Of a DNA stretch of 64,000 bases, positions 30,264 through 53,063 are shown piece after piece. Within the stretch, counting starts at the first letter, position 1. Each line of letters begins with the position of its first letter. Position numbers and translations under genes: made by a program. Below the pieces are notes generated by a model that was given only the letters and a program-made list of their open reading frames with translations, made no database searches and was not told the origin of the DNA. The stretch is from an uncultured bacterium (GTDB lineage: Bacteria > Omnitrophota > Omnitrophia > Omnitrophales > Aquincolibacteriaceae), in contig CAYQTU010000002.1 in the NCBI GenBank assembly GCA_964420575.1, forward strand, positions 18,534 to 82,533. Reading direction: 5' to 3'.

Positions 30264-30321
30264 TCTCAAAACCTACGAAAACCTATTCCGAACCCCCCTG
30301 TTTTGGCCCAATACTATGAGA
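30264..30321 (+). promoter_or_regulatory. conserved ~60-bp promoter-like element, copy 1 of 3
   Basis: TCTCAAAACCTACGAAAACCTATTCCGAA-N8-GTTTTGGCCCAATACTATGAG; near-identical copies at 47305-47365 and 52998-53063, all ~80-100 bp upstream of + strand genes. Confidence 0.6.
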
Positions 30322-30406
30322 GAACCTATAAATCAAAACGACCAGTCTTAAACCTGGTGCTACTTTTTTGGCCTTAAAGCCATAGACATAGAAAAGGAGA
30401 ACGACA

Positions 30407-30850
30407 ATGAAACGAGAACTGGACATCAGACGACGTGACTGTGCAATTTCCGTGAACTCGCAAAAGACCGTTTCCGGAAGTTTTTTGGCAAGATTGGGAA
30501 GGTTATTCGGTGCTGGCGTAAGTCTTGGTTTTGTGCTTTTTGTGGCCATAACCTCTTGCGCTTTGATGAACCGTGGTTCCAATTTTGCGTGGGCATCCTG
30601 GCAGGAGATGTGGAAAGAAGAAACACCGAAGCAGTCCCGGGAGATTGCGCTTCCGGTGCTGCCGAGCACCCGGAAAGCCCAACCCTATCGTCCGCAGGTT
30701 GTTGTGGCGCAGCAGCCATCCGTTATGGCTGCGGCGACCGTGAGACCTGTGGAGGATTACCGAATCGCGCAAGAGCGGCGCTTGCTTTTGAGCGATCTCT
30801 GGAGCCGTTTGAATCAGACGTTATCAACGGCCCGAAGTTTTTCGCGGTAA
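30407..30850 (+). CDS. hypothetical membrane protein
   Basis: RBS AAAGGAG 7 nt upstream of ATG; one TM helix (GAGVSLGFVLFVAITSCAL). Confidence 0.5.
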   Translation: MKRELDIRRRDCAISVNSQKTVSGSFLARLGRLFGAGVSLGFVLFVAITSCALMNRGSNFAWASWQEMWKEETPKQSREIALPVLPSTRKAQPYRPQVVVAQQPSVMAAATVRPVEDYRIAQERRLLLSDLWSRLNQTLSTARSFSR

Positions 30851-30946
30851 TCTTGATCGCAGGGTAAAAGGGGGAAGAGAGCAAATCTTCCCCCTTGCGG
30901 CGGTAAGCTTCTCCTTGGCGGGCCATTTCACAAGGAGGAGCTTCTA

Positions 30947-31711
30947 ATGAATCAACCGCCCGATAGCGAAAGTACCGCAATCGACGATTCTGACGATGAG
31001 TCAAAGATTATCACCCCGATTGAGTTAACGGATCGAGACATCGCGATTTTTAAATTGATCCACGAACACCGGTATTTGGCCTACGGCCAGATCCGGGAAG
31101 CGTTCTGGAAAGAGCGTTCGGAGTCGGCTAAAGCCTGTTACCGGCGGATCGAGCGGCTCATTAATTCAGGGTATCTTTCGAAAGGTTATTCCGGCCGAAA
31201 GAATCTGAACATCTATTTCGCGACCGAAAAATCCCTGGAGATCCTGAAAACTCGAAATCTCGATTCCGATATCCGACTTTATGAGCCCACCCCGTATTTC
31301 GATCGCTCCATCGACCATGATTTGAAAGTCGCAAGCGTAAGGATTTTCTTCCGGGAGTTTGGCCTGAGTGACTGGACCCCCGAAAGGGTGTTAAGGGAAC
31401 GCGATCATTTCTTTCGCGTCCCGGACGGTGTTTTGAATATTCGCGGGAAAAAGCTCGCAATCGAGTTCGAAAATCATCTGACGAAGAGCATGAAACGCTA
31501 TCAGGAAGTTTTTGATTATTACAGCGATCACAAGATCTATCTCCTGCTTCTCATGATTATCGACGGGGATACCAAGGACTGGCTCGTTCACGGAATGCGC
31601 TATAACGCCCAGAAGATCTGGATCACAACGTATCAGGAGCTGCTGAATGACAGGGAAGACACGCTTTTTGAAAATAAACGGGCCAGTTTCAAGCTGAGCC
31701 GGCTCTTTTAG
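30947..31711 (+). CDS. replication-relaxation (Replic_Relax) family protein
   Basis: 254 aa; N-terminal wHTH-like LTDRDIAIFKLIHEHRYLAYGQIREAFW...RRIERLINSGYL and C-terminal core HDLKVASVRIFF...VPDGVLNIRGKKLAIEFENH typical of this mobile-element family; RBS AAGGAGG. Confidence 0.55.
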   Translation: MNQPPDSESTAIDDSDDESKIITPIELTDRDIAIFKLIHEHRYLAYGQIREAFWKERSESAKACYRRIERLINSGYLSKGYSGRKNLNIYFATEKSLEILKTRNLDSDIRLYEPTPYFDRSIDHDLKVASVRIFFREFGLSDWTPERVLRERDHFFRVPDGVLNIRGKKLAIEFENHLTKSMKRYQEVFDYYSDHKIYLLLLMIIDGDTKDWLVHGMRYNAQKIWITTYQELLNDREDTLFENKRASFKLSRLF

Positions 31712-31719
31712 GGGGCGCG

Positions 31720-33540
31720 ATGCAAAAACCTCCTGTTAAAAGAGAACCGTTCCTCGTCCGTATGATCGGCGGGATTTTTGTGGGGATCCCTTTCGGGATT
31801 TCGAAGAGCATTCTGAATCTTTTGACGAGCCTTAAGCGTCCATCGCTTCAAAGACTGATCCCTGGGATACTTGTCTCGTTTTCGCTGTTTTGTGTTTTAA
31901 GGCTCGGCGCTCTTTTCGATCTGCTCGACCTTCTCTTTCAAAGCAGGCGGGTCGATCCCGGCTGGGCTGCGGGCGTGAAATTCGGGTTCTTTTTCCTGCT
32001 TTATCTCGTCATCACTCTCCCCGTTTTCCTGTGCTTTGCTTATTTGAATCAGGAAGCACGATTTTTCAAACAGGATCCAGTCAAACGAGACCCGTCTCCG
32101 GAACGGATGCGGTCTTTCCGCATGAAATCCGATTATCACAAGGTTTATCTGGGGTACGGCCTGAACCAGGAGAAACCTCTTTATCTCACCAACGACCAGC
32201 GCCTGATGCACTGCGAGGTGGTGGGAAGCACCGGCACCGGAAAAACGGAGTCCGTGCTTCTTCCGATGCTCGCCCATGACATCTCGCATGGGAAAGGCGC
32301 GATCATCATTGACGGAAAAGGGGACCTGGAACTCAGGGACAAGATCCGTTACATCGTCCATAAACAGAAGCGCGAGGATGACTTTTACTTCTTCTCGTTA
32401 AGCCATCCCCAAAAATCGAATACTTATAACCCGCTTTACCGCGGGAACCCCACGGAACTGAAAGACAAGCTCGTCAACAGCATGTCCTGGAGCGAGGAGT
32501 TTTACCGGCGCATGGCGGAACAAGCTGCGCTCACGCTTCTTAACGCCATCGCTTCCGCAGGCCGGAAACCCCGGTTTCGCGAGCTTCACGGCTATTTAAC
32601 GGACCTGCAAGCCTTACAAAAACTCTCGGATGAAACCAGGAGCCCGGTCCTGAAGGAAGACATTGGAAAAATGGTCACGGGTTTCAAGGACAATCACAAG
32701 TTTCTGGCCGGGTTAATATCCGATCTTTTCCTCACCTCAAGGAGCGAGTTCTCGGACCTTCTGGATACGGATGATCCCGATATCGATCTGCTTTCGCTTT
32801 ACGAGAATAACCAAATCTGCTATTTCGCGCTCGATCTTCAGAAATACGCGGATACTTCGCGGCGTCTCGGCCGGATGATCATCCAGGATATCCGTGCCGC
32901 TTCGAGCCATATCGTGTCCCATCTTACGGCTTACCGCCGTCATTTCTTCCCGGTGTTTATCGATGACGCCTCGAGTTTTTTGGAGCTTAATTTCATCGAT
33001 TTCCTGAATAAATGCCGGGCGAGCGGATATGCCGTTACGATTCTCCATCAATCCCTGGGGGACCTTGTTTACCGGGGGATGTCCAATTTCCAACAGCAGG
33101 TGGTCGAGAACACCAATATCAAGGTCATTTTGCGCCAGGATGATCCCTTTTCCGTGGAGAAGTTCGTGAAAATCGCCGGGACGCGCCGCACCATGATCGC
33201 GACTTACCAGACGCAGGAACAAATCCTTGGAAAAGGACTGACCGGCGCGGGCTCCGTTCGCGAAGGCCAGACTTTCCGCATCGAGCCGGACCTGATCCGG
33301 GGCCTTAAACGCGGCGAGGCCGCCTTGATCTGGAAAAACCCGTCTTTGTTGACCGATCATATTAAACTCGATTTCTTCGGGTACTCGAGTTATCCGGAAG
33401 AACCGTCCTCAAAAGACAACGGGGAGAAGATTCCAAAGAAAAAACGTGCAATAAAAACTCTCACCGAAGAAAAGGAGAAAACTCATGAGGAGATCAAAAA
33501 TCCGCTTGATATCATCAATCAATTAGAAAAAGAGAAATGA
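31720..33540 (+). CDS. type IV secretion coupling protein (VirD4/TraD/TraG-like ATPase)
   Basis: N-terminal TM helices, Walker A VVGSTGTGKTES, Walker B-like region FFPVFIDDASSFL, 606 aa. Confidence 0.8.
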   Translation: MQKPPVKREPFLVRMIGGIFVGIPFGISKSILNLLTSLKRPSLQRLIPGILVSFSLFCVLRLGALFDLLDLLFQSRRVDPGWAAGVKFGFFFLLYLVITLPVFLCFAYLNQEARFFKQDPVKRDPSPERMRSFRMKSDYHKVYLGYGLNQEKPLYLTNDQRLMHCEVVGSTGTGKTESVLLPMLAHDISHGKGAIIIDGKGDLELRDKIRYIVHKQKREDDFYFFSLSHPQKSNTYNPLYRGNPTELKDKLVNSMSWSEEFYRRMAEQAALTLLNAIASAGRKPRFRELHGYLTDLQALQKLSDETRSPVLKEDIGKMVTGFKDNHKFLAGLISDLFLTSRSEFSDLLDTDDPDIDLLSLYENNQICYFALDLQKYADTSRRLGRMIIQDIRAASSHIVSHLTAYRRHFFPVFIDDASSFLELNFIDFLNKCRASGYAVTILHQSLGDLVYRGMSNFQQQVVENTNIKVILRQDDPFSVEKFVKIAGTRRTMIATYQTQEQILGKGLTGAGSVREGQTFRIEPDLIRGLKRGEAALIWKNPSLLTDHIKLDFFGYSSYPEEPSSKDNGEKIPKKKRAIKTLTEEKEKTHEEIKNPLDIINQLEKEK

Positions 33541-33585
33541 AAATAACCGCTATTTAAAAGAGTTTCATAAGCGTTCGAGTTGCAA

Positions 33586-33633
33586 GGGGAGAGCACTGGG
33601 TTTCGATCCGGCCGCTCTCCTCTTTTTTATTTT
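33586..33633 (+). terminator. rho-independent terminator
   Basis: GGGGAGAGC...GCTCTCC stem followed by TTTTTTATTTT. Confidence 0.65.
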
Positions 33634-33728
33634 CAGCCCGGAAAAAGGAGGTGATTTTGGCAAAGAAAAAAGCTTCAGCAGTTTCATAAATGTTTCAAAA
33701 AACCAATAAATCCAAAAGGAGAAAGACA

Positions 33729-34241
33729 ATGAATACCAAGAAAGAAAGCACCAAACACAGCGACAAGATCATCAAGGACGTTCCGCGTTTCGAGAACGAT
33801 ATTTACCGCGTCAGTTCGTGGACCGGTAAGGACGGAGCGTCCTTTTTGGATCTTCACGTGTATTACAAGAAGAACGGGGAGTTCACAAAAACGAAGGAAG
33901 GGATGAACGTCCGCTCGGACTTCCGCAAGGAAATCGCGGAAGCTCTTGTGGCCGCGAAATCCGCTCCGGCGCTTTCCCTTCCCGCCGAAGGCAAGAACTG
34001 TGAAACGGTTCTCGTGACAAGCGTCTCGATTTCCGAAACCGAGCAGTACCAGGTTTCGAAAGTCCGCGGTCCGAAGAACAGTTTCGTGCGGATCTCGTAC
34101 GCCTTCAAGGGGGACGAAGGAAACTTCATCCCGAATGGCAAGAAAGCCCTGTCCATTCTGGAGTCTTCCGTGGAAGGCGTGGTGGAGGCCCTCAAAAGCC
34201 CGGAAGCCGAGCCTGCGAAGGCGGCCGTTCACGCCGCTTAA
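33729..34241 (+). CDS. tandem PC4/YdbC-like putative ssDNA-binding protein
   Basis: ATG at 33729 after RBS AAAAGGAGAAAG. Two repeats resembling the PC4 fold signature: IYRVSSWTGKDGASFLDLHVYYKKNGEFTKTKEGMNV and YQVSKVRGPKNSFVRISYAFKGDEGNFIPNGKKALSI. Confidence 0.45.
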   Translation: MNTKKESTKHSDKIIKDVPRFENDIYRVSSWTGKDGASFLDLHVYYKKNGEFTKTKEGMNVRSDFRKEIAEALVAAKSAPALSLPAEGKNCETVLVTSVSISETEQYQVSKVRGPKNSFVRISYAFKGDEGNFIPNGKKALSILESSVEGVVEALKSPEAEPAKAAVHAA

Positions 34242-34268
34242 TTCGCGCGGTATCAACCGGAAACTTAA

Positions 34269-34312
34269 GGGAGAGGTGGTTTTAACAAAACCGCTTCTCC
34301 CTTTTTGTTTTT
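34269..34312 (+). terminator. rho-independent terminator
   Basis: GGGAGAGGTGGTTTT-AAC-AAAACCGCTTCTCCC stem then TTTTTGTTTTT. Confidence 0.6.
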
Positions 34313-34495
34313 CAAGGAGGAGGTGATTTTTGTGCGGCTCATCATTCGCAAGCAGGATGAACTAAAACACGCCCATCTGATCCAGCGTTTCAAGCGCTTC
34401 GGCTGGGAAGTGATCGTGAAATGAATATCGGAACATGGGCGGGAAGTAACGCGTTCATTCCCGCCCATGTCTTCTACCGGGAAAGGAGTAGTCGT

Positions 34496-34726
34496 ATGAC
34501 GCGTTGTATTCGTTGCAAGAAAAGAATCAAAAGGAACGGTTATCAAATTTCTATCGTAAGACGGACAAGATCCGCGAACATTTTTAAGCCCGTATTTTTT
34601 TGGCACAGGGTTCTTGTCTCATTTTTGTGCTGGGCTTGCGTTCAAAATCCGGTCCGAATTGACAGGTTATTCAACCCAAAAGAAAAAAAGCAGGCTCTGA
34701 AACTTGCCCGGCTACGGGACTGGTAA
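34496..34726 (+). CDS. hypothetical small basic Cys-containing protein
   Basis: ATG 34496 preceded by GAAAGGAG; the ORF-track start (34421) would run through a perfect 11-bp hairpin (34433-34470), so the downstream start is preferred. Confidence 0.4.
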   Translation: MTRCIRCKKRIKRNGYQISIVRRTRSANIFKPVFFWHRVLVSFLCWACVQNPVRIDRLFNPKEKKQALKLARLRDW

Positions 34727-34740
34727 AGGAGGTTTTAAAG

Positions 34741-35199
34741 ATGCTTACACGCAAAGAATTACTCGAAATCGTGAATGAATTGAACAGCCAGAACGCCGGC
34801 CGCCAGGTCGGATACATCTCAGGTTACCGCGATCAATGGTTCATCGGGGGTTATATCGGCAGGGATAACTCCGACCGTCAGGAACTCGAACTGCATTTTT
34901 GTCAGGGGAGGAATGTCGGCCGGATCAATTTCAACGGCGGGTACACGGTTACGTTGGATATTACCCGTTGCAAGAACCAGCAGGAGGTGTTCGAGGAATT
35001 CGAACTCCTCGATCATCACAAGCGCTGCGAGAAGGAGCGGGCGGAAGAGCGGCAGGCAAAACTCGATGCCCGCTGTTTACGCTGCGTCAATTTTCTCGGA
35101 AGACTTACGAGAAACTGCAAACCCTCTTCAGAGTGCGGCTACAAACGTACTCGCCGCCGCGTCAAAGAAGCCCTAGCCTCGGTTAACGCCGGCTCATGA
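34741..35199 (+). CDS. hypothetical protein
   Basis: RBS AAAGGAGG 8 nt upstream; 152 aa; C-terminal Cys pairs. Confidence 0.55.
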   Translation: MLTRKELLEIVNELNSQNAGRQVGYISGYRDQWFIGGYIGRDNSDRQELELHFCQGRNVGRINFNGGYTVTLDITRCKNQQEVFEEFELLDHHKRCEKERAEERQAKLDARCLRCVNFLGRLTRNCKPSSECGYKRTRRRVKEALASVNAGS

Positions 35200-35483
35200 C
35201 CGTTAACAGAAAGGAAACTCTTATGCAACTCACTCGCCTCACCAAAAAAATTCATGGCAGTACCGCCTATATCTTCACGCCGATTCAGCAGGAAACCGGG
35301 AAGCGGATCAAACTCTGGATCAAAGAGAAATGGACCCCGAGAGGAAGATTAACCGGTTTTGACGTTACGGACGCGCGGACGGGAAGGAAATACCAGGCTA
35401 GAACCGCGCACTGCGATTTAGAGGGCTGTATTTGCGATGCCGTCATTCTCGGTTATCCCTCCCGACCCGATCGCAAAAAATAA
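35196..35483 (+). CDS. hypothetical protein
   Basis: 95-aa ORF overlapping previous stop; alternative ATG at 35223 with AAAGGAAA RBS. Confidence 0.45.
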   Translation: MTVNRKETLMQLTRLTKKIHGSTAYIFTPIQQETGKRIKLWIKEKWTPRGRLTGFDVTDARTGRKYQARTAHCDLEGCICDAVILGYPSRPDRKK

Positions 35484-35516
35484 GCGTCGTCTCAAATCAA
35501 ACCTAAGGAGAAAGTT

Positions 35517-35873
35517 ATGAAACTAAGAAAAAGAGAACTCGCCACCGTGCTTGCCGCGCTTCGAATGTTTCAGGCCCGGCCATCCACCGAAACCGGTCAT
35601 TTTGAGGATGTCCGGCCGCTTGGCGCAAAAAAGATTGATGGTCTGTGCGAGCGTCTAAATTGCGGTGTTTGTATCGGAGGGCTCAGCCACCGTAAGAATA
35701 AGGTCTTAAAGATCGTGGTGCATATCGAGGAAGGAATCGTTCAGGCGGTATACGCGAACGTTCCAAAAGCGAACGTCAGTGTTTATGACACTGATCCCGA
35801 ATTTAGAGAACTCGAGAAAGAGAAAAGGAATTTGAAACGGGCCATTAAGGGATTAATCGACGTTCGTAAATAA
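35517..35873 (+). CDS. hypothetical protein
   Basis: RBS TAAGGAGAAAG; 118 aa. Confidence 0.55.
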   Translation: MKLRKRELATVLAALRMFQARPSTETGHFEDVRPLGAKKIDGLCERLNCGVCIGGLSHRKNKVLKIVVHIEEGIVQAVYANVPKANVSVYDTDPEFRELEKEKRNLKRAIKGLIDVRK

Positions 35874-35899
35874 ACCGCACCATTCATTTAGAAATTCAC

Positions 35900-35936
35900 C
35901 GGGCAGGGCCGTGAAAGCGTCCCTGCCTTTTTCATT
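35900..35936 (+). terminator. rho-independent terminator
   Basis: GGCAGGG-CCGTGAAAGCGT-CCCTGCC then TTTTTCATT. Confidence 0.6.
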
Positions 35937-35952
35937 AAAGGAGGGAGAGTTT

Positions 35953-36456
35953 ATGGAATATCCGAACCGCGAAACGCTTCAAGCGGAGCTTTACCAGGAC
36001 CTGAAAAAACTGCTTCTTGAATATCACTCCGGTCTTTTTGAAACGAAGAAAAAGGAGGATGAAGGGGAACTTCTTATCAAGAAACTTTATCTCGATTCGC
36101 AGGAGGGCTGCGTTCCCGACGAATTTATCGGGGAGGAACTTCTCTATGCCGTGAAAGAGAAGTTTTACGCGATTTTCAGCGTGATCCGGGACAAAGTAGC
36201 GGCGGATTATTTGCACAAGAAGAACATCCATTGCCCCCCGATTTCAATTCTCATTGAAGCCTCGTATGAGGATGTCACGTATGTCGTTGTCTTGTTTCAA
36301 AACGCAGTGATCTCGGAGTACAACGCGAAGGCCTGGAATTTCGTGTGGATTTCACCCGAGGAACTCCAAAAAGAAATGGCGGATCTCTTTTACAAGATGA
36401 GGGACCGCCTTAACCAGTATTTCGTCGAAGGCATTCGCTACGTTAAACAAAAATGA
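35953..36456 (+). CDS. hypothetical protein
   Basis: ATG 35953 with AAAGGAGGGAG RBS (ORF-track start 35911 overlaps the terminator hairpin). Confidence 0.55.
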   Translation: MEYPNRETLQAELYQDLKKLLLEYHSGLFETKKKEDEGELLIKKLYLDSQEGCVPDEFIGEELLYAVKEKFYAIFSVIRDKVAADYLHKKNIHCPPISILIEASYEDVTYVVVLFQNAVISEYNAKAWNFVWISPEELQKEMADLFYKMRDRLNQYFVEGIRYVKQK

Positions 36457-36486
36457 CCCTGCTCACTTTAAAAGGAGAACATTCCC

Positions 36487-37593
36487 ATGAAGAAACTTTA
36501 TACAGAGTACAAAGGCATTTACGTGCTTCAGGATCCGGGGGATCTCGCGGCCCTGAAACTTGATTCGTGCGTTGTTTCAAGGAAAAGACACCAGATTTAT
36601 ATCGCTCCGCTTGAGAATCTTCAAACAAAGCAGGTGGAGGACAAGCGTAGTTCCGGGTATTCCGACCCTGTTTTCGGATTTTACGCCGCGAAACCCGAAA
36701 GATTCCTCGTGATTAATGGCGAGCGCAAGAACTCGAAATTCTGCGATCTTTGCAAGGACCGGTTGCACGGGATCACCGGCAACTGTTTTAACTATGGGGC
36801 GAAACCAGGCGGCTGTTCTTTCCGTCCGGCAAAGGCTCCGGGGAAATTCAATATCTCGCTTGCCGGATGGAAGTATTTAAAGCCCTCGCGCGTCAATCAA
36901 TACTCACCCTTTAAGAAACCTTGGAGCGCGGAATACATCCATCTCGATTCGAAAATAATTAACCGGAACAAACGCGCCCTCGCCGCGCGCAATGATTTTT
37001 GGGGCCAGCTTGAGAAGAAGAAGGCGAAATATTGCGCCCGCTGCATCTTCAAAGGCCGCTGTTACATGAACAGCATGCGGATCGCAGAGCGCTGCATGGT
37101 CACGGTCGAGAAAACCGAGAAACGCTCTTTAGGGAAAATTCATTCGAGATTCGGAAGTGTTGAGGAGTTTTTGAACCGGCTTGCTTATTGCGGGAAGGAG
37201 ATCGTCTGCCGTCCGAAGGGCGAGAAGCGGAAAACGAGGTGGGTGGTCACGAAACCCGTAGGCCGTAACAAATTCCTCATTCGAAAAAGAAGCCGGCCTT
37301 TCAAAAGAGCGATCGTTTCAAAGACGAGAATCGAAAGAAACGTGGTTCCGGAAGCGTTGCCGTCGCTTGAGCGTGAGAAGATAGCGACTTTTGCCTGGTA
37401 CTTTTTCGAAAAGTACTGCGCGAAAGATCAGGACGCGTACCGGGGATACCGGGGCCGCACGATTCGTATTCTTTCGGTCACTCCGGTTCCTAGCGGCATC
37501 GAGGTGAGCTATTACCCTTACGGCTGGGGCACTCCAAGCATCTCTCGAAAACAATTCCATTCATTTAATGAGATTGTGAGTTTCGAGCGTTGA
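36487..37593 (+). CDS. Cys-rich hypothetical protein, paralog A of tandem pair
   Basis: 368 aa; RBS AAAGGAGAAC; conserved with 37622..38680 over whole length (KFCDLCKDRLHGITGNCFN / CSFRPA / KYCARCIFKGRCYMNSMRIAERCMVT). Confidence 0.7.
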   Translation: MKKLYTEYKGIYVLQDPGDLAALKLDSCVVSRKRHQIYIAPLENLQTKQVEDKRSSGYSDPVFGFYAAKPERFLVINGERKNSKFCDLCKDRLHGITGNCFNYGAKPGGCSFRPAKAPGKFNISLAGWKYLKPSRVNQYSPFKKPWSAEYIHLDSKIINRNKRALAARNDFWGQLEKKKAKYCARCIFKGRCYMNSMRIAERCMVTVEKTEKRSLGKIHSRFGSVEEFLNRLAYCGKEIVCRPKGEKRKTRWVVTKPVGRNKFLIRKRSRPFKRAIVSKTRIERNVVPEALPSLEREKIATFAWYFFEKYCAKDQDAYRGYRGRTIRILSVTPVPSGIEVSYYPYGWGTPSISRKQFHSFNEIVSFER

Positions 37594-37621
37594 TTCACAT
37601 TCAAACCAAAGGAGAACCAAG

Positions 37622-38680: not shown

Positions 38681-38733
38681 TCCTTTCACTTAATTTCAAA
38701 TCCATCACAAAAAACCAAGGGAGAAAACTGTTT

Positions 38734-46017: not shown

Positions 46018-46025
46018 CGGGGATC

Positions 46026-46070
46026 GGGGAGAGGGGTTGCTCCCTCTCCCCGAAAAGCGCTCTTTTTTTT
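46026..46070 (+). terminator. rho-independent terminator
   Basis: GGGGAGAGGG-GTTGCT-CCCTCTCCCC then GAAAAGCGCTC-TTTTTTTT. Confidence 0.6.
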
Positions 46071-46289
46071 GCCCAAAATCAGCTAATAATTTCACGTTTT
46101 CCTATTGTGTTTCTCGCAATTTTGATCATCCCTCATCAACCTCAAAAAATGTTTCGGCCGCCCCTTGCAAAAAAGAATTTCATACATTACAGTTCCTTTG
46201 CCCAAATGGGCACCCTGAAAAAAGTCTTTTCTTTTTTCGGGACGTTTGCGGTGGGTGATATGAGGCATCCACGCATGACATAAAGAACC

Positions 46290-46620
46290 ACCTATAGTTG
46301 GAGGCGAGACGCAAGCGCGTCTCGACGTATGCAGACTATAACTCAAGGCCGTGTGAGTCTGGACACGGCAACGCGGAAGGGTTGTTCGCGTCAGAGTTGT
46401 AGTGTGCCTCCAATCCCTTTTCCCCTCAGTTCGATCTTCACTCCTGTTTAAGTCCTGACCCTGTCAGGCGTCTGATCCTGGCCTGAATTTTTCCATTCAG
46501 GAACCTTCTCTCTTTTTTCAATGTCGATCCCTATCTTGGGATTCCTTCCAATGGGCATGGTGTCTTCGCATACTTCGCGGCCTTAAAAATCTTTTTTCGT
46601 TTTTAAGGCCCTCATTTCTT
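46290..46620 (+). ncRNA. candidate structured noncoding RNA or oriT-like multi-hairpin locus
   Basis: No credible ORF. Nested long-range pairings (TGGAGGC 46297 / GCCTCCA 46406 enclosing hairpins GAGACGC-aagc-GCGTCTC, CCGTGT-gagtctgga-CACGG, ACGCG-gaagggttgtt-CGCGT); further hairpins CCTGAC/GTCAGG, CCTGAAT/ATTCAGG, 11-bp perfect IR GGCCTTAAAAA/TTTTTAAGGCC (46579-46610). Bracketed by its own terminator. Confidence 0.35.
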
Positions 46621-46623
46621 GAA

Positions 46624-46658
46624 ACGGGCAGCCCCTTTCCGGGTTGCCCGTTTTTTTT
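46624..46658 (+). terminator. rho-independent terminator
   Basis: ACGGGCAGCC-loop-GGTTGCCCGT 10-bp stem then TTTTTTTT. Confidence 0.7.
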
Positions 46659-46697
46659 CCTCATTCCAGTTCTTCGCACGGCGGAAAGGACACCGCC

Positions 46698-47306
46698 GTG
46701 TCTACAAAGAACGAAAACGAAGAACAGAATCAAAACCTTGCCGAGGAGGCTGGGGAAGAAAGAGAAGAACGAACCAAATCAAGAACAAGGGCGGTTGATT
46801 TCATGCGTGTGGAAGATACGCAAGGCCAAACTCTCACTCACTTTGAACTGAAAGTGAAAGAAAAGATCGCCTGTGTCCCGAGTCCTTTTGAAGAACTCGC
46901 CAGGAAGGAGGATGAGGAAAACCGGTCCGAAGAGGTTCGAAACACACTGAGGGACTTAGTGGAGAAGGCTTTGACCGAGAAACAGAAAGCCTGGTTCCAT
47001 CTTGCGTACGTGGAAGAACTCCCGGACTTTGAGATCGCGAAACGCCTCGGCGTTACGAAACGCCGGGTTTCGTCTCTTAGAGCCGAGGCCTTAAACGCCT
47101 TCAAGCGCGTTTATGAGAAAGAACGGCTCAAGCAATATCTGGACACCTGCGCTCTCACGGAAAAACAGAGGCTTGTGATCGAACTCCGCTTTGAGAAGCG
47201 GCTCTCCTATAAAGAGATCGCGGAACGGTTGGGAGTGACGGTTTGGGCCGTGGATGACGTTTTAAAACGGATCCGGAAAAATTTTTTCTCTCGGGAAAAT
47301 TCGTGA
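46698..47306 (+). CDS. transcriptional regulator with two tandem sigma-70 region-4-like HTH domains
   Basis: LTEKQKAWFHLAYVEELPDFEIAKRLGVTKRRVSSLRAEALNAFKRV and LTEKQRLVIELRFEKRLSYKEIAERLGVTVWAVDDVLKRIRKNF; no region-2 detected. Start taken as GTG 46698 (alternative ATG 46803) because the ORF-track start 46644 lies inside the upstream terminator. Confidence 0.6.
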   Translation: MSTKNENEEQNQNLAEEAGEEREERTKSRTRAVDFMRVEDTQGQTLTHFELKVKEKIACVPSPFEELARKEDEENRSEEVRNTLRDLVEKALTEKQKAWFHLAYVEELPDFEIAKRLGVTKRRVSSLRAEALNAFKRVYEKERLKQYLDTCALTEKQRLVIELRFEKRLSYKEIAERLGVTVWAVDDVLKRIRKNFFSRENS

Positions 47307-47365
47307 AACCTACGAAGACCTATTCCGAACAGGGTCGTTTTGGCCCAATACTATGAGGGGAGATG
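47305..47365 (+). promoter_or_regulatory. conserved ~60-bp promoter-like element, copy 2 of 3
   Basis: GAAACCTACGAAGACCTATTCCGAACAGGGTCGTTTTGGCCCAATACTATGAGGGGAGATG; begins immediately after the stop of the region-4 regulator gene and ~95 bp upstream of the pilin gene. Confidence 0.6.
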
Positions 47366-47461
47366 CCACCCATTCAAATTTATTTGTGAGCGTCGCGATT
47401 CGCGGCTACCCCAGGGGGTTTAAGGCAAATCCCCCCTCACCTTATGAGGAGGGTAAAGAAC

Positions 47462-47779
47462 GTGAATGGAAAAAGTATTGGTCCAAAAATTCAAAAACTG
47501 GCCCTGTTCGGATTGCTCCTGTTGATCCGGGCACAGGTCGCGTACGCGGAAGCGACCTCGGAATCGGATTTAGGATCGTTTCTCGAGGGTGTCGGTGATT
47601 TTCTGATCCGAACGGTCGGTCCCGCCGTGCTCGTGATCGGGGTCGGAGTGGCCGGGGTCGGGATGGCGCTTGGCGATGAGCGCGCCATGCAGCGCGGCGC
47701 GCTTGCCGCGGGCGGCGGCGCTCTCATTTTGCTTTCCCGCGCGATTCTCGATTTCATCACGCACATCGCGCATTTTTAG
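47462..47779 (+). CDS. VirB2/TrbC-like conjugative pilin precursor
   Basis: GTG 47462 8 nt after GAGGAGGG; signal peptide ...LLLLIRAQVAYA|EA, two hydrophobic helices (TVGPAVLVIGVGVAGVGMALG; AAGGGALILLSRAILDFI). Confidence 0.6.
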   Translation: MNGKSIGPKIQKLALFGLLLLIRAQVAYAEATSESDLGSFLEGVGDFLIRTVGPAVLVIGVGVAGVGMALGDERAMQRGALAAGGGALILLSRAILDFITHIAHF

Positions 47780-47790
47780 GAGGTTTTGAA

Positions 47791-48069
47791 GTGAAAACGC
47801 TGAAAGGTTTCACGAAAATTCAAAGCAAGAACAAGATCCTCGGGCTCGAGTTCCTTGATCTTTTGATCCTGCTTCTTGTTTATCTGGTGGTGTTCGTTTT
47901 CTCCGCGAACCTTCTCCTCAACCTCGCGCTCGTGGCGGGAGCCTATTTTATTTTACGGCTCTACAAAAAAGGGAAGGCCCCGCACTGGGCGGGTTCTGTG
48001 ATCCGGTTCTTGCTAAAGCCCCGGAAATACGTTTTATGCCGGGAAAAAGAAGAGGAGCTTCCCCGATGA
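47791..48069 (+). CDS. VirB3/TrbD-like small membrane protein
   Basis: GTG after GGAGG; 92 aa with one or two TM helices; position between pilin and VirB4-like ATPase with 4-nt overlap. Confidence 0.45.
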   Translation: MKTLKGFTKIQSKNKILGLEFLDLLILLLVYLVVFVFSANLLLNLALVAGAYFILRLYKKGKAPHWAGSVIRFLLKPRKYVLCREKEEELPR

Positions 48070-50579
48070 AAACGAGTCTTCTCACTAAAACTCGGGACCT
48101 CATCCAGCGGGAGAATAGTCCCTCGTTTCTGCGTCAGATCGATCTTTATGACATTGAGGACGGAATTCTGCTTGGGGTAAGCGGCAGCATGGCTCGCGGG
48201 TTCTGGTTTGGCGGAAAGGATGTACTGCTTTCAAGCGAGGCCGAGATCGAGGATTTCGAAAGAAAGATGCGAAAGTTCTTAAACGCGCTCCCGGAAGGAG
48301 CAACTCTCCATTTCGTGGTCCGATCCGGGACTGGGGATGAAGACTCACTCAAGCAATACGCCTCTTCGATTCAAAGCGGAGTTTCGCTTGGAAAAACCTT
48401 TCTTGACGCGAAACTCGGCGCGTACCGGAAACATCCTCTTTTGAAAAAGGAAGTTTTTTTGTTTGTGGTGATCCATCCGAAGACGAGAAAACCGCGTTCC
48501 TCGTTTCTTCCGGATCTGTCCGTCGCATTCGGGAAAAAAGCGCACCGCCTCTCCGAACTTGAATACTCCGCATCGAGAGAAACGCTTCACGCGCTTACGA
48601 CCGAGATCGAGGAAAGTTTCCGTACGCTCGGTTTCGATATGCGCGCGCTTTCCGACCCAGAACTCACCAAGTACTTGTATGAGTTCCTGAACCCGTTTTA
48701 TTCGAAGGAATTCGTTCCCTTCGAGAAAGCCAATTTTAAAGCGAGCGACTCTGACCCGGCGAGCCTCAGAAGCCGTCTTTCGCTTCATCCTCCGCGTCTT
48801 GGGTACGAGTATTTCTATCTCGACCACTATTTTTACCGGGCATTGAATCTCGTCCGTTTGCCTGACTCCACGACTCTTAAATCCATGAAAGATTTCGAGC
48901 GCTCGCTCGGTAACGATTATTTCCTTACGGTCACTTTCGAGGTTCCCGATCAGGACCGCGAGAAATCGGAGATCCGGCGGTACGGGAACTTCGCGAGAGC
49001 GAAAACCTTTTACTCCCGAGCGAAGGATCATGACGCGCTCGCGCAAGCCGGGGAAACGGACGAGCTTTTGACGGAGATTGCCCAAAGCGCGGACAAGCTC
49101 TTTTACGTTTCGTTTTCCGTGATGGTGCGTGCCGAGACCTTGGGAGAAAGCGTCCGGTCTTCCAGGCAGGCGCTTCGTGCTTTCCGGGATCTCGGGGACG
49201 CTCAGGGGATCGAGGACCACATGAATCACGACCGTTTATTTCTTTCGTTTTTGCCGCTTCAGGGCGATGAAAACCCGCTCGCGTTCATAGTTCGTTCCGA
49301 AGTCCTAACGCATCTTCTTCCGCTTCAGGCGAGCTGGCGAGGGACGGACCGGATCGGGCTGCTTCTCAAGACTTACCGTAACGAACCGCTCCGCCTCGAT
49401 CTTTTCGATTCGAAGCTTCAGGCGAAACACAGCGTAATGCTCGGCACGACCGGGAGCGGAAAGAGTTTTTTTACGAACCACTTACTCCTTCATTTCCTGA
49501 TTGAGTCTCTGGATCATGAAGTGATCGTGATCGACCTGGGCGGCAGTTACCGGAAACTGGCCGGAGTTCTGGGCGGGTCTTATCTCGAAGTAGAATGCTC
49601 GGAAAAATACGCGTTAAACCCTTTTCCTGCCAAGGCAGTTCTTTTCCCGGACGGAGGAGCGGACGCGACTTTCATTCAGTTCCTGAAGGAACTGCTCAGG
49701 CAGATGATCGCCCCGAGACGGGAATGGTCCTCAAGCGAGAAGATGATCCTTGAACGGGCGATTCTGGAAGTCTACCGGAATATTGGTGCCCAGGATGCCC
49801 CGCTTCTCGGGGACATCGAAAAATGCCTTCGCAATTTCCAGATCGGGGATGAGGAGGACCGCAAGAAAGCGTATCAGTTCGCGAAAGAACTTACGCTTTT
49901 CACGGAAGGCGAGTACGGGAAGATCCTTAACCGATGCGGGGTCTTTGATTTTAATTCGCGGTTCACGGTTTTCGATCTCCGGAAGATTTCGCAATACCCC
50001 GAGCTTCAGGAGATCCTGCTGCTCATTATTCCGTTCGCGCTTCGCCGTAAATTCGAGAACTTGAATCTAAAGAAGATCCTCGTTTTGGACGAATGCTGGC
50101 AGCTTCTGAAAGACAGTCAGGGGACGGATCTTGTCGAGACCTTCTACAGGACCGCCCGGAAAATGAACGCCGCGGTTTGCTCGATCTCTCAAAACCCAGC
50201 GGATTTTCTCGAGGCGTCCATCGCGAGCGTCATGATCAATAACTCTCCGGTTAAATACATCCTTCGGCTCAAGGAAGGCCACGGGAAACTCTCGCTTTTC
50301 GGGCTGAACGAAAACGAGATCAAAGCGGTCGGGGAGCTTGAGGTGAGACCGGGCCGGTACTCGGAAGTGTTTATCAAATTCGACGATCGAAGCGTCATTG
50401 CCCGTCTTGAGCCAAGCGCTCTCGAGTATTGGGCCGCCACGACGGACGCTCTGGATTTGGCAGAGGAAACCCGGCTCCGGAAAGAACATCCGGATTATCC
50501 GCCGATCAAGATCCTCGAAACGCTTTCCCGGGAGTTTCCAAACGGCGTTAAGAAATCAAACGAGGCGGATCATGTCTGA
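48066..50579 (+). CDS. VirB4/TrbE/CagE-like type IV secretion ATPase
   Basis: ATG 48066 after GAGGAG; Walker A MLGTTGSGKSFF, Walker B ILVLDECWQLL, ~840 aa, conserved C-terminal region. Confidence 0.9.
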   Translation: MKTSLLTKTRDLIQRENSPSFLRQIDLYDIEDGILLGVSGSMARGFWFGGKDVLLSSEAEIEDFERKMRKFLNALPEGATLHFVVRSGTGDEDSLKQYASSIQSGVSLGKTFLDAKLGAYRKHPLLKKEVFLFVVIHPKTRKPRSSFLPDLSVAFGKKAHRLSELEYSASRETLHALTTEIEESFRTLGFDMRALSDPELTKYLYEFLNPFYSKEFVPFEKANFKASDSDPASLRSRLSLHPPRLGYEYFYLDHYFYRALNLVRLPDSTTLKSMKDFERSLGNDYFLTVTFEVPDQDREKSEIRRYGNFARAKTFYSRAKDHDALAQAGETDELLTEIAQSADKLFYVSFSVMVRAETLGESVRSSRQALRAFRDLGDAQGIEDHMNHDRLFLSFLPLQGDENPLAFIVRSEVLTHLLPLQASWRGTDRIGLLLKTYRNEPLRLDLFDSKLQAKHSVMLGTTGSGKSFFTNHLLLHFLIESLDHEVIVIDLGGSYRKLAGVLGGSYLEVECSEKYALNPFPAKAVLFPDGGADATFIQFLKELLRQMIAPRREWSSSEKMILERAILEVYRNIGAQDAPLLGDIEKCLRNFQIGDEEDRKKAYQFAKELTLFTEGEYGKILNRCGVFDFNSRFTVFDLRKISQYPELQEILLLIIPFALRRKFENLNLKKILVLDECWQLLKDSQGTDLVETFYRTARKMNAAVCSISQNPADFLEASIASVMINNSPVKYILRLKEGHGKLSLFGLNENEIKAVGELEVRPGRYSEVFIKFDDRSVIARLEPSALEYWAATTDALDLAEETRLRKEHPDYPPIKILETLSREFPNGVKKSNEADHV

Positions 50580-50699
50580 GGCGGTAGCGGAACGGCACAA
50601 ACGATGGATCGGAAGAATTCGCCGGAGACTGTTTCTCCGGTTCTTTTTGGGGGTTCTGATAATTAGCCTTGGATTTTTACTTTTATTTGGGAGGTAATT
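50571..50699 (+). CDS. hypothetical small membrane protein (42 aa)
   Basis: ATG 50571 overlapping VirB4 end; RRRLFLRFFLGVLIISLGFLLLFG. Confidence 0.3.
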
Positions 50700-50700
50700 T

Positions 50701-51468
50701 ATGAGGAAATCATCAAGGATTCTATTTCTGGCGCTCTTTTTACTGAGCGCCGCGATTCCGAGATCTTACGCGCTCATCGTGAACGATCCAATTCACACCG
50801 CGGTCAATCAGCTTCAAAACTCGATCCTTCAAACCGAGTGGGCGAAACAGATTGCGCTCGCGATCGAGCATCTCAACCAGCTCACGAATCAAACTATGGA
50901 GATCTTCCGGTTTCATTCGGGGCTGGATGAGATTTTAAATTCCATCATCGGCGATCCTTTACGGAATCTTCTCGGGCAGGGCACCACGAATTTGCAGAAC
51001 GCTTTCAGAGATCTCGGCCTTACCGGTTCTCAAATCCAGATCGTGCAGGGAGCGACCGGTCCAGAAGACATCCGTTTCGCTTTGGAGGATCTCACCGGGA
51101 AAATCCCGGAAACGGACGCGAAACCCTACCTCGCGTTTGACGAGATGCAGGTGGTGGACGCCTTCGATCTCGCCCGGCAGATCCGGCAGGCGGGAGACAC
51201 GACGCGCACTGCCGCAACCCAGATCGCGGATGAGGCCGTGACCGCAAGCCCGAAAGGGGCTGTGCGCCTCCAGGCGCAGGCCATGTCCCAGCTCATGGTG
51301 CTCAGTCAACAGAACCAGGAAGCCATGGCGAAACTGCTTGAACTTGAAGCCACAAAAATCTCTCAGGTCACGCGCGAAGAAAAACGCGTGGAAACGGAAC
51401 GCCTCAAATTCATGGAAGACGCCGGCGATTACGCGGACGGTATTGCCCGGGCGTTTATAGGAGCGTAA
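50701..51468 (+). CDS. secreted alpha-helical protein, possible VirB5/TrbJ-like
   Basis: Signal peptide MRKSSRILFLALFLLSAAIPRSYA; helical/coiled content; position after VirB4. Confidence 0.35.
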   Translation: MRKSSRILFLALFLLSAAIPRSYALIVNDPIHTAVNQLQNSILQTEWAKQIALAIEHLNQLTNQTMEIFRFHSGLDEILNSIIGDPLRNLLGQGTTNLQNAFRDLGLTGSQIQIVQGATGPEDIRFALEDLTGKIPETDAKPYLAFDEMQVVDAFDLARQIRQAGDTTRTAATQIADEAVTASPKGAVRLQAQAMSQLMVLSQQNQEAMAKLLELEATKISQVTREEKRVETERLKFMEDAGDYADGIARAFIGA

Positions 51469-51475
51469 TTATTTT

Positions 51476-52336
51476 ATGGCTGGTTTCTTTAGCGCAAACG
51501 AAGGGTTCCTCTTCACGAATGTGTTGCAGATCCCGAATCTTTTCGAGCAGCCGTATCAGACCATGTCACGGATCGGGTTTATCCTGCTTTCGATCCTTTT
51601 CATCGTGGCGATCCTTCATGAGAATTTTCAGGCGCTTAAAGGCAAGTCCGATTACACGGGCCTTTTCATCCGGGTCCTCTTAGTCGTCGGGCTTCTCATT
51701 CTTTACGAGCGGTTCTTCATCTGGATCGTGTACGGCTCGGATCTTGTGTCGAACGCGATCATGCCGCATGAAGAATTCCAGGAAGTCATTAAAGCGTTCC
51801 TCAAACAACCGTTGAGCTGGAAAACTGCGTGGAAATTCGATCTAAGACTTACCGCCACGGTCCTAAATTACGTGACCTACGCGATTGCCGGGGCGCTCCT
51901 TGGCGCGATTATGATGCTCCGGTTTCTGCTTTTGTCGTTCCTGTATGTTGTCGGCCCGATCGTGATCTCGGCGGGGATCTATAAAGGGACCGCTCAGGGC
52001 CTAAACGCCTGGCTTAAAAGTCTCGTCTCCATTTCCTCATGGAATATTTTTCTCGCGGTTCTCATGAAAGTCGTCTCCGTCATGAATCTGACCGCGATCT
52101 ATCTCACGGAAGAAAGCAATTTCATGATGATCCTCGCCGCGAACGTGCTTTTTATCGTGCTCTTTGTGCTCGTCCCGCTTCTTTCCAACCAGTTCGTTTC
52201 CGGGGGGAACCTGGGCGGTCTTGGCTCCATCGCGCTGGGCGCGTTTACCGCGGTAGCGACCCGTTACATCATTCCTAAATCGCCTTCATCCTCAAAACCT
52301 CAAACCCCAACCGGGCAAGGAGCCGGTTACAAATGA
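51476..52336 (+). CDS. polytopic membrane protein, possible VirB6/TrbL-like
   Basis: 286 aa with >=5 hydrophobic helices; C-terminal Ser/Pro/Gly tail; T4SS operon position. Confidence 0.45.
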   Translation: MAGFFSANEGFLFTNVLQIPNLFEQPYQTMSRIGFILLSILFIVAILHENFQALKGKSDYTGLFIRVLLVVGLLILYERFFIWIVYGSDLVSNAIMPHEEFQEVIKAFLKQPLSWKTAWKFDLRLTATVLNYVTYAIAGALLGAIMMLRFLLLSFLYVVGPIVISAGIYKGTAQGLNAWLKSLVSISSWNIFLAVLMKVVSVMNLTAIYLTEESNFMMILAANVLFIVLFVLVPLLSNQFVSGGNLGGLGSIALGAFTAVATRYIIPKSPSSSKPQTPTGQGAGYK

Positions 52337-52980
52337 AAACTCGATTCCACGAAAGACTCGAGACCATGAAACGCCGTTATTATGAGGTGTTCGGAGATCT
52401 GGAAGCGCAAGTCGAATTCCTGAAACTCATCAGTCTTTTTTTGCTCGCGCTTCTTTTTTTCACGATCTTTGGCGCTTTTCTGCTCGCGAAACGGCCGCCG
52501 GTGGTGATCCGGGTAAATGAGGTGGGACGAGCCGAAGCGATTCACGATCTTGAGCAGAATAACGCTCCGAGCGATTTCGAGCTTTTCGATTTCTCAAAGA
52601 CTTTCACGAAAAGATTCCGGGAACTCAACTCCTATACGCTTGCAAACGATACCGCCGAGGCCTGGAACCGCATGACGACGCGGTATCGGAAAGTCGCGGA
52701 CCGGGATCTTGTGGACTCCGGATTCTTCGCGAAATTCCATGATACCGGTCTTTACACGCATATCGAGTTCAAGGAAGAATCGATCGACCGGAATACTCCG
52801 GAATACGTGAAAATCGCGCTGATCGGGGTGCGGACCATCCTCAATTACAACGACCGGGATTATAAGGAATCGAGTCTCTTTAAAGCCGAGCTGCTTTTAA
52901 AGAAGGTTCCGAGAAGCAAAGAGACGCCTTGGGGCGTCCTTGTCGAAGACTACCGCGAAATCCTCCTCAATAAACTCTAA
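52333..52980 (+). CDS. VirB8/TrbF-like bitopic protein
   Basis: Cytoplasmic N-term, single TM (LISLFLLALLFFTIFGAFLLA), periplasmic ~150-aa domain; 4-nt overlap with upstream gene. Confidence 0.5.
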   Translation: MKTRFHERLETMKRRYYEVFGDLEAQVEFLKLISLFLLALLFFTIFGAFLLAKRPPVVIRVNEVGRAEAIHDLEQNNAPSDFELFDFSKTFTKRFRELNSYTLANDTAEAWNRMTTRYRKVADRDLVDSGFFAKFHDTGLYTHIEFKEESIDRNTPEYVKIALIGVRTILNYNDRDYKESSLFKAELLLKKVPRSKETPWGVLVEDYREILLNKL

Positions 52981-52997
52981 AAATCTTCGTTTTTTTT

Positions 52998-53063
52998 CTC
53001 AAAACCTACGAAAACCTATTCCGAAACACCCCGTTTTGGCCCAATACTATGAGGGGAGATGTA
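52998..53063 (+). promoter_or_regulatory. conserved ~60-bp promoter-like element, copy 3 of 3
   Basis: TCTCAAAACCTACGAAAACCTATTCCGAAACACCCCGTTTTGGCCCAATACTATGAGGGGAGATG, ~85 bp upstream of the VirB9-like gene. Confidence 0.6.

Follow-up and report, generated by a model that had tools for sequence, protein, structure and literature searches.

What do three near-identical blocks of DNA do in front of three transfer operons of a single mobile element? The question is raised by a 64,000-nucleotide stretch from an uncultured bacterium of the phylum Omnitrophota (assembly GCA_964420575.1, contig CAYQTU010000002.1, positions 18,534 to 82,533 of the forward strand), here called the window and numbered from its first letter. 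From ~30.1 kb to its end the window holds an integrative conjugative element whose genes all lie on the + strand, and in which an initial annotation, made from the letters alone, had described a promoter-like motif of ~60 bp in three copies. We examined these copies, their relatives in other genomes and a 202-amino-acid protein encoded by the same element, and propose, with a probability of roughly 65%, that the repeated unit is a complete, activator-dependent promoter of the element.

Three copies of one unit

Each unit precedes the first gene of one transfer operon (relaxase/coupling protein, pilin/VirB4 or VirB9/VirB10). The unit is ~80 bp long and comprises an A/T-rich stretch, two boxes, a C-rich spacer and a core formed by TTTKGCCCAAKACTNT and a purine run. 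Core positions are counted from the initial T of TTTKGCCC, which is position 1 (30302 for copy A, 47339 for copy B and 53035 for copy C), and positions upstream of it carry negative numbers.

30245..30326, + strand: unit A whole (A/T-rich stretch, boxes, spacer, core), preceding the operon of open reading frame (ORF) 30407, relaxase 30947, coupling protein 31720 and following genes
30268-30279, 30280-30294, 30295-30301 and 30302-30326, + strand: distal box, proximal box, C-rich spacer and core (TTTGGCCCAATACTATGAGAGAACC) of unit A
47282..47363, + strand: unit B whole, preceding the operon of pilin TrbC 47462, TraL-like protein 47791 and VirB4 48036
47305-47316, 47317-47331, 47332-47338 and 47339-47363, + strand: distal box, proximal box, spacer and core of unit B
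52978..53059, + strand: unit C whole, preceding the operon of CagX/VirB9-like protein 53145 and TrbI/VirB10-like protein 54158
53001-53012, 53013-53027, 53028-53034 and 53035-53059, + strand: distal box, proximal box, spacer and core of unit C

A 21-mer, GTTTTGGCCCAATACTATGAG, is identical at 30300, 47337 and 53033, each time on the + strand. Even when three mismatches are allowed, neither strand of the 64-kb window contains a further match, and 100 dinucleotide-preserving shuffles yielded none. The left half, AAACCTACGAARACCTATTCCGAA, found at 30269, 47306 and 53002, gives the same shuffle and mismatch statistics, and a relaxed scan with up to five mismatches revealed no fourth core copy in the window. 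From the end of the core (position 25) the start codons lie ~81 nt (ATG 30407), ~99 nt (GTG 47462) and ~86 nt (ATG 53145) downstream. The initial annotation was therefore accurate in describing three + strand copies with a downstream half invariant over 21 bp, 80-100 bp upstream of ORF starts.

Several of its details need adjustment. Alignment of the flanks shows conservation from the A/T-rich stretch to a few bases past the purine run GAG(A/G)G(A/G)A, which extends the unit upstream beyond the proposed ~60 bp; outside these edges the three regions are unrelated to one another. The spacer between the halves counts 7 nt rather than 8, and copy A ends in GAGAGAAC rather than GAGGGGAGA. The direct repeat noted in the upstream half is present, although its register is 10 bp (AACCTA-N4-AACCTA) instead of 11 and its second member reads GACCTA in copy B. 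As had been noticed, the short ORF 30159..30377 merely translates the repeat (as QNLRKPIPNPPVLAQYYE); we rejected it as a gene, since the conservation is at the nucleotide level and ends at the unit edges. Unit B is partly shared with coding DNA: its distal box overlaps the stop codon (47304-47306) of the gene for the 202-amino-acid protein, and its A/T-rich part doubles as C-terminal codons of that gene.

The unit marks operon starts in a family of elements

The genome-wide motif search proposed in the initial annotation was carried out with the degenerate core TTTKGCCCAATACTNTGAGRGRA against one genome per species (185,579 species) and against metagenome contigs. It returned 8 loci from the species genomes (5 labelled Candidatus Omnitrophota/Omnitrophica and 3 labelled 'uncultured bacterium') and 31 from the metagenome contigs, whose sources include groundwater and sludge. 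All 39 precede a transfer, relaxase or xis/int operon of related elements, and no unit in an unrelated context was found among them. When the window proteins were mapped on these loci, units were seen to precede relaxase/coupling-protein, pilin/VirB4 or VirB9/VirB10 operons, or the diverged relaxase of a small element. Contigs carrying homologues of the 202-amino-acid protein (46-78% identity) are syntenic with the window and have the unit at the same places.

Altogether ~50 distinct copies were collected from related Omnitrophota elements. Every one heads a transfer, relaxase or excision/integration operon, and all are oriented in the same way, towards the downstream operon. A widespread intergenic repeat family unrelated to operon starts, named at the time as the refuting scenario, is excluded by the inspected loci, all of which lie in related elements. 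At the edge of another small element, L012 (4689-5370, - strand), a unit stands in front of genes for an excisionase-like HTH_17 protein and a tyrosine integrase, indicating that excision and integration genes can also be wired to the unit.

One homologue of the 202-amino-acid protein, at L003 (GCA_030688765.1, JAUYJJ010000019.1), comes from a bin labelled Candidatus Harrisonbacteria; the other labelled hosts are Omnitrophota. This label reflects either a binning error or an element in a second phylum.

A conserved core and variable boxes

Core conservation in loci found by the pattern scan is uninformative, as it is fixed by the pattern, and we therefore turned to loci retrieved via the protein alone. 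Their cores read:

L005: TTTTGCCCAATACTATGAGGGGAG
L052: TTTTGCCCAATACTATAGGGGGAAG
L050: AATTGCCCAAGACTATGGGGGGAG
L053: TTTTCCCAAATACATGAGGGGAGGAG
L054: TTATCACCTTACTAAAGAGGGGAGCG

The core is kept in L005, L050 and L052 and is recognisable but eroded in the two most distant loci, L053 and L054. Judged from these sequences, the core is truly conserved, eroding only in the most distant relatives.

Upstream of the core, an ungapped profile of 33 copies has AAA at -33..-31 (30, 32 and 33 of 33), T at -28, CCT at -20..-18, CC at -14/-13 and RAA at -12..-10 as anchors, followed by the C-rich spacer at -5..-3; the A/T-rich stretch covers -57..-39. Since these positions align without gaps, the spacing of the unit is fixed. 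The intervening sequence diverges strongly between elements: single-linkage clustering of the upstream 27 bp (-34..-8) separates 13 types, and all copies within one conjugative element are of one box type.

The boxes follow the two domains of a candidate regulator

The initial annotation had proposed a binding test of the unit with a protein encoded just upstream of unit B:

46698..47306, + strand: candidate regulator, 202 amino acids, with two sigma-70 region-4 matches and no other domain

The protein has a disordered acidic N-terminus, a conserved segment at residues 29-63 and tandem region-4-like helix-turn-helix (HTH) domains at ~94-140 and ~155-197. Its structure model (mean predicted local distance difference test score 76, above 85 over the HTHs) contains two four-helix domains, each superposing on sigma region 4 at 0.8-1.4 Å, and renders the invariant segment 29-63 as a short hairpin and a helix. 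By profile comparison the closest solved relatives of each half are FliA region 4, and in alignments with NCBIfam sigma models residues 12-136 correspond to FliA/WhiG regions 3-4. Neither profiles nor the structure model reveal a sigma region 2, and an E. coli RpoE profile aligns over region 4 only. A hidden region 2, considered as a further candidate, finds no support in the profile searches, the model or a fold search. Profiles and model together point to a DNA-binding protein of two region-4 domains rather than a complete sigma factor. The family is small: 13 relatives were found at 90% clustering among 5.8 billion sequences, and a profile search of 1.8 billion representatives recovered ~60 full-length clusters (~200 amino acids) in addition to shorter one-HTH forms.

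For 10 pairs of a regulator and its unit B we compared protein distances with box distances. Among these related pairs, HTH1 distances correlate with those of box positions -21..-8 (Mantel r = 0.86, p = 0.0002) and HTH2 distances with those of -34..-22 (r = 0.86-0.87, p = 0.0002), while the crossed comparisons give r = 0.56 and 0.64. In a sliding 3-nt scan, positions -36..-23 track HTH2 and positions -22..-8 track HTH1.

The same assignment is suggested by L049, which reads as a natural recombinant displaying both HTH-box pairings. Between L049 and L042 the HTH2 domains share 94% identity and the distal boxes differ at 2 of 18 positions; between L049 and L047 the distal boxes differ at 11 of 18. 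The HTH1 of L049 is nearest to that of L047 (69% versus 49%), and the L049 proximal box shows 0 of 9 differences from L047 and 4 of 9 from L042. In addition, relatives with HTH1 only exist at L025 (312-857) and L039 (796-1437), as well as among short profile hits, and the units of L025 and L039 have only the core and the proximal part AACGGGAC. These sequence comparisons suggest a pairing of the second HTH with the distal box and of the first with the proximal box, which lies at the predicted -35 position. This module-by-module co-variation supports the tandem region-4 protein as the unit's probable binder.

The regulator gene has no unit upstream and is preceded instead by terminator-like hairpins, an arrangement that fits a hierarchy running from regulator to targets. 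The hairpins (46579-46610, and 46621-46654 with a T run) close a noncoding region of ~680 nt (46018-46697) and end 44 nt before the regulator start codon. This region is strongly conserved, including in a relative of 46% identity (GGCCGTGTG...ACACGGCAACGCGGAAGG), and matches no Rfam family; it could act as a long regulatory leader, or as a noncoding RNA, that controls the regulator by attenuation.

Predicted promoter elements in the unit

Transcription signals can be predicted within the core at the following places:

30310..30324, + strand: predicted -10 region and start window of unit A (start 30320-30324), AATACTAT, with overlapping hexamers AATACT and TACTAT
47347-47361 and 53043-53057, + strand: predicted equivalents in units B and C

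Two overlapping hexamers, AATACT (core positions 9-14) and TACTNT (11-16), can serve as a -10 element. In both, A2 and T6 are kept in all copies except L053 and L054, and the only freely varying core position, 15, is among the least constrained places of a -10 hexamer. A start 6-9 nt past either hexamer falls at core positions 19-25, which puts the proximal box over -35 and the distal box at about -45 to -55. No TTGACA-like -35 hexamer is present 16-18 bp upstream, and consensus scans find no sigma-70 promoter at the three units; the -35 position instead holds CGAACC, CGAACA or CGAAAC and varies between elements. The predicted layout matches a class II activator site, or the site of a protein replacing sigma region 4. 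The C-terminal domains of the polymerase alpha subunits could make use of the A/T-rich stretch that lies further upstream.

We examined other promoter classes as well. A sigma-54 promoter, which needs an invariant GG at -24 and, 10 bp away, a GC at -12, was rejected: of 33 copies of the unit, 14 have T in place of the second G of TTTGG, and no GC lies at the required distance. The sigma-28 (FliA) promoter consensus is TAAAGTTT-N11-GCCGATAA, and the core segment GCCCAATA agrees with its -10 part at 5 of 8 positions, with no TAAA-type -35 element and with spacing off by ~3 nt. A promoter for a T7-like polymerase is suggested by the block length and by ...ACTAT-GAGGGGAGA, which recall T7 class III promoters. 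It was rejected, as no polymerase domain occurs in the scanned element ORFs and the only ORF above 610 amino acids encodes the VirB4 ATPase. Also rejected were a Bacteroidetes-type -33/-7 promoter (no TTTG or TAnnTTTG at the right places) and a single-strand promoter hairpin of the kind found in leading regions (the block forms no hairpin).

In the mechanism that we propose, the nearly invariant core would supply the -10-like element (AATACT or TACTNT) and a purine-rich start region, with transcription beginning ~19-23 nt into it, and the element's own 202-amino-acid protein would read the two element-specific boxes in place of a -35 hexamer. Its first HTH would occupy the proximal box at about -35 and its second the distal box at about -45 to -55, one helical turn upstream. 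The protein bound at the boxes would recruit or complete the host RNA polymerase, and one regulator would turn on all three transfer operons together.

Tandem arrays on mobilizable elements

That the regulator activates rather than represses is suggested by the missing -35 hexamer and by tandem arrays of units on mobilizable elements. Arrays of 2-5 tandem units that differ in type are found on small integrative mobilizable elements, which encode a large serine recombinase and have one or two Replic_Relax genes, and no transfer apparatus was found in the examined DNA of these loci. The plan of unit or units, Replic_Relax gene and serine recombinase recurs in L038, L037, L045, L027 and L009. In L038, a ~4-kb element beside spoVG, ispE, hisG and ftsH, five tandem units ~97 bp apart are followed by an inverted repeat, two Replic_Relax genes, a small ORF and a large serine recombinase. 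Each of the five units of this array (488-875) has its own core, the boxes are of at least 4 types, and two of these types match conjugative elements elsewhere. L037 (5475-5649, - strand) and L029 (12156-12356) have three units of three types each, L045 (2510-2610, - strand) has two units, and L009 and L034 combine one window-type unit before the relaxase gene with five variant units in a 233-bp tandem array.

Duplication of the whole unit, and not of the box alone, indicates that box and core work together at fixed spacing. Arrays of several types act as an OR gate only if the cognate proteins activate, which is our main reason for preferring activation over repression. Were the proteins repressors, the absence of a single one would suffice for an array to fire, and the arrays would make no regulatory sense. 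On activation, stacked units of differing specificity would let any of several helper elements activate the mobilizable elements.

The 233-bp arrays have further features of their own. At L034 (10380-11277) and L009 (2967-3843, - strand), each of the five ~233-bp repeats opens with the variant unit TTTTGCCCAAGACTATAGGAGAT, after which come a hairpin like those of the leaders downstream of A-type units and a short ORF with a ribosome site.

Predicted leader helices that begin in the core

A helix predicted in the leaders of operons B and C takes one of its arms from the core's purine run:

47354..47371, + strand: 5' arm of the operon B leader helix, beginning inside the core purine run (TGAGGGGAGATGCCACCC)
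47415..47440, + strand: 3' arm of the operon B leader helix, GGGG..GGC..ATCCCCCCTCAC, ending 5 nt before the Shine-Dalgarno sequence GAGGAGGG (47446-47453)
53050..53059, + strand: 5' arm of the operon C leader helix, TGAGGGGAGA, with its partner TTTCTCATCCCCTC at 53106-53119, before the Shine-Dalgarno sequence AGGAG at 53130

The pairing partner of core positions 16-33 is, in all 15 B-type leaders and thus also in the most distant, a segment whose end lies just upstream of the Shine-Dalgarno sequence. Duplex energies range from -24 to -36 kcal/mol (z of -2.5 to -7 against shuffled arms), and the distal part of the helix shows compensating changes (in the distant relatives L047, L005, L025, L052, L053 and L054). 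The same helix is present in most C-type leaders, and A-type leaders have no purine-run pairing. The helix partner CUCCCCUCA is also complementary to the Shine-Dalgarno region, and in operon B the 3' arm at 47415-47440 could pair with either the 5' arm or the Shine-Dalgarno sequence. The helix may keep the ribosome site open, and its pairing pattern suggests a translation switch or a stabiliser of the RNA 5' end in operons B and C.

In A-type leaders (window 30326-30406; L005, L010, L011, L023 and L026) core positions 26-31 form an A/T box with the sequence TATAAA, and two hairpins, CCAGTCTTAAACCTGG and GGCCTTAAAGCC, are present. This A/T box could be part of a sigma-70 promoter, TTGCCC-N17-TATAAA, which was rejected as the basis of the shared block, since it is available in A-type leaders only.

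Weighing the alternatives

A dedicated promoter/operator of the conjugation module, as first proposed in the initial annotation, is backed by the operon-start context of the unit and by the co-variation of boxes with HTHs. Several observations nevertheless weigh against an activator-dependent promoter with a -10 element in the core. Conservation over ~23 bp far exceeds the need of a -10 hexamer, and in L053 and L054 neither candidate hexamer keeps both key bases. The purine-run pairing begins at core positions 16-17, and a full helix in the RNA would put the start too near TACTNT for sigma-70, which makes the -10 assignment uncertain. If the whole helix is in the RNA, the start would be near 17-19, fitting AATACT or a sigma-28-like element better than TACTNT; the leader-helix and -10 arguments thus indicate starts a few nucleotides apart. 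The 10 regulator/unit pairs are related and element genes co-diverge, so that ancestry inflates the correlations, and the regulator matches the KORA profile (25.3 bits, E = 1.8e-5) just below its 26.7-bit cut-off. Common ancestry alone does not explain the module-specific pattern and the L049 recombinant. For the core, candidate readers are the invariant N-terminal segment of the regulator, which would be adjacent to HTH1 if the chain runs antiparallel to the promoter, and a FliA-type host sigma factor reading GCCCAATA in place of GCCGATAA. Combined constraints of a -10 element, a discriminator and the RNA 5' end are a further candidate explanation.

The near-match to KorA bears on the view that the core is a constitutive promoter and the two-HTH protein a repressor, with boxes overlapping -35 as operators in the manner of IncP KorA/KorB. 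The boxes do overlap the predicted -35 position, a KorA-operator complex is among the many small HTH matches of the fold search, and co-variation shows recognition, not its sign. Yet there is no -35-like hexamer for unaided firing, the boxes are asymmetric direct repeats rather than palindromes, and multi-box arrays would be permanently on unless all matching repressors were present; we consider repression unlikely. Somewhat greater doubt attaches to an alternative holoenzyme, in which the protein would be the recognition module of a split or appropriated sigma factor, its first region-4 domain resting on the polymerase flap at -35, and a host group-3 sigma factor or partner would read the core (GCCCAATA), with a start at about core position 19. 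Such an arrangement would account for the resemblance of both HTHs to FliA/sigma-28 region 4, for the alignment with FliA/WhiG regions 3-4, for the 5 of 8 positions shared by GCCCAATA and GCCGATAA, and for a core conserved highly enough to suggest a specific reader. A start 7 nt past GCCCAATA would also place the whole leader helix in the RNA. It is decidedly unlikely in view of the lack of a sigma region 2 in the protein or any scanned element ORF, a proximal box unlike the sigma-28 -35 element and the ~3-nt departure from consensus spacing.

The remaining explanations place the function of the unit elsewhere than in transcription initiation. That the block is transcribed from upstream and acts in the leader RNA, for example in antitermination or as a processing site, is favoured by the well-supported helix formed by the purine run in operons B and C. 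The three blocks themselves fold no better than shuffles (z = 0.05, 0.07 and -0.12) and have no Rfam match at gathering, with chance-level hits only at E <= 1; a structured RNA was rejected on these grounds. The upstream boxes co-vary with protein HTHs rather than with each other, unit A lacks the leader helix, and units stand at the very start of the genes of mobilizable elements, all of which renders an RNA-level role highly improbable. A site for transfer origin, partition or recombination could be argued from the repetition of the units on a mobile element, and a short coding repeat could be argued from ORFs 30159..30377 and 52940..53170, which span two copies. However, the orientation towards the operon is constant, the distance to start codons is fixed, and a better candidate transfer origin lies at 30124-30186; the peptide frame is lost in copy B and there is no 3-nt periodicity. 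These last possibilities are scarcely credible.

More speculatively, tandem region-4 proteins may be modular polymerase adaptors, in which one domain replaces the host's sigma region 4 at -35, the other reads DNA one helical turn upstream, and the N-terminal segment or a partner reads the 23-bp core. We regard this extension of the activator-dependent promoter as doubtful but worth stating. If it is true, the two boxes would form an 'address code' that diversifies between lineages, with parasitic elements stacking addresses for several helpers, and conjugative elements would have invented sigma appropriation in a phylum without genetics.

The surrounding conjugative element

The genes that identify the element lie between its left end and a serine-recombinase fragment at the right edge of the window:

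30947, + strand: Replic_Relax/MobC-type relaxase
31720, + strand: coupling protein
47462, + strand: TrbC/VirB2 pilin
47791, + strand: TraL-like protein
48036, + strand: VirB4/TraC ATPase
51476, + strand: TrbL/VirB6-like protein
53145, + strand: CagX/VirB9
54158, + strand: TrbI/VirB10
55441, + strand: outer-membrane channel

Just upstream of unit A and the relaxase operon is a 21-bp inverted repeat (30124-30186; arms 30124-30144 and 30166-30186) with the loop motif CTCCCTCGTCAT, followed by a palindrome at 30184-30209. The hairpin also occurs in L005 and, in L038, L037 and L045, between the unit array and the relaxase gene. Changes in its arms compensate each other (CGACTACG/CGTAGTCG to CGACCCCA/TGGGGTCG). 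It is likely a transfer origin common to conjugative and mobilizable elements.

A LacI-family gene and a 133-amino-acid ORF without known function flank the left end of the element (window 28390-30002; L005 1707-3313). The two are ~6 kb more distant from unit A in L035, and they could either mark the site of insertion or belong to the element. Outside the element, a c-di-GMP-I-GGC riboswitch (9734-9824, + strand; 68.5 bits, gathering score 59) lies upstream of ORF 10109-10507 and a 5005-amino-acid ORF (10989-26006).

Relation to known regulons

Master regulators of transfer are best known from SXT/R391 and IncA/C elements, where SetCD and AcaCD boxes, respectively, lie at or near the -35 position of every transfer operon in a class II arrangement, and where unrelated mobilizable islands carry the same boxes before excision or mobilization genes and so exploit the helper (PMC4344509, PMC4207636, PMC5058578). 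Here, too, the same boxes recur ahead of several transfer operons with constant spacing to the core promoter, and here, too, they occur on mobilizable elements without transfer apparatus (L038, L037, L045, L027 and L009; compare L012). In contrast to the FlhDC-like heteromeric SetCD and AcaCD, the candidate regulator is a single chain with two sigma-region-4 HTHs, and the box sequence is unrelated. No FlhC or FlhD domain occurs in the scanned element ORFs, where the tandem region-4 protein is the only co-varying DNA-binding candidate. The nearly invariant core promoter, at least 13 box types, the stacking of several types and the Omnitrophota host also set the proposed system apart. Limited literature searches turned up no description of multi-type stacking and nothing specific on Omnitrophota conjugative elements or on tandem region-4 regulators of transfer genes.

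TraR of Ti plasmids is an activator with a sigma-4/LuxR-type HTH whose box lies near -42 or -62 of several tra/trb promoters. It resembles the proposed regulator as an HTH activator with a box at several transfer promoters of a conjugative element, but tra boxes are 18-bp palindromes bound by a ligand-dependent dimer, whereas the unit has two direct, non-identical boxes 10 bp apart and the protein no ligand domain. In phage T4 middle promoters a MotA box is combined with sigma appropriation by AsiA. These promoters likewise have a good -10 element, no -35 hexamer and a box at about -30 for a mobile-element protein that takes the region-4 position, although MotA and AsiA are unrelated in sequence to the regulator found here. 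KorA and KorB of IncP plasmids (RK2) are repressors acting at palindromic operators in many plasmid promoters, which are strong sigma-70 promoters. Global control through a short site repeated at many promoters of a conjugative plasmid is the likeness; the units, by contrast, have neither palindrome nor -35 hexamer, and the KORA match falls below the Pfam threshold. Orf7 of Tn916 is sigma-like. Orf7 and Orf8 are small element-encoded activators of transfer-gene transcription (PMC5812530). Tn916, as described, has one promoter with read-through after circularization, whereas here the unit is repeated for each operon.

By analogy, we view the unit as a family-wide bipartite promoter akin to the master-activator regulons of SXT/R391, IncA/C and Ti elements but a member of none of them, given its different regulator family, box architecture, invariant core and host phylum. 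We know of no experimental work on transcription signals or on mobile-element regulation in the widespread, uncultivated Omnitrophota. The present elements offer a regulon defined by sequence, with one candidate regulator, three targets per element and ~13 natural specificity variants, and a naturally occurring domain swap from which the box read by each HTH can be predicted. The stacked units on mobilizable elements look like a means of sensing several helpers. Should the model prove correct, mobile elements and their helper relationships would be traceable in metagenomes by the boxes, and the regulator/box pairs would provide orthogonal promoter/activator parts.

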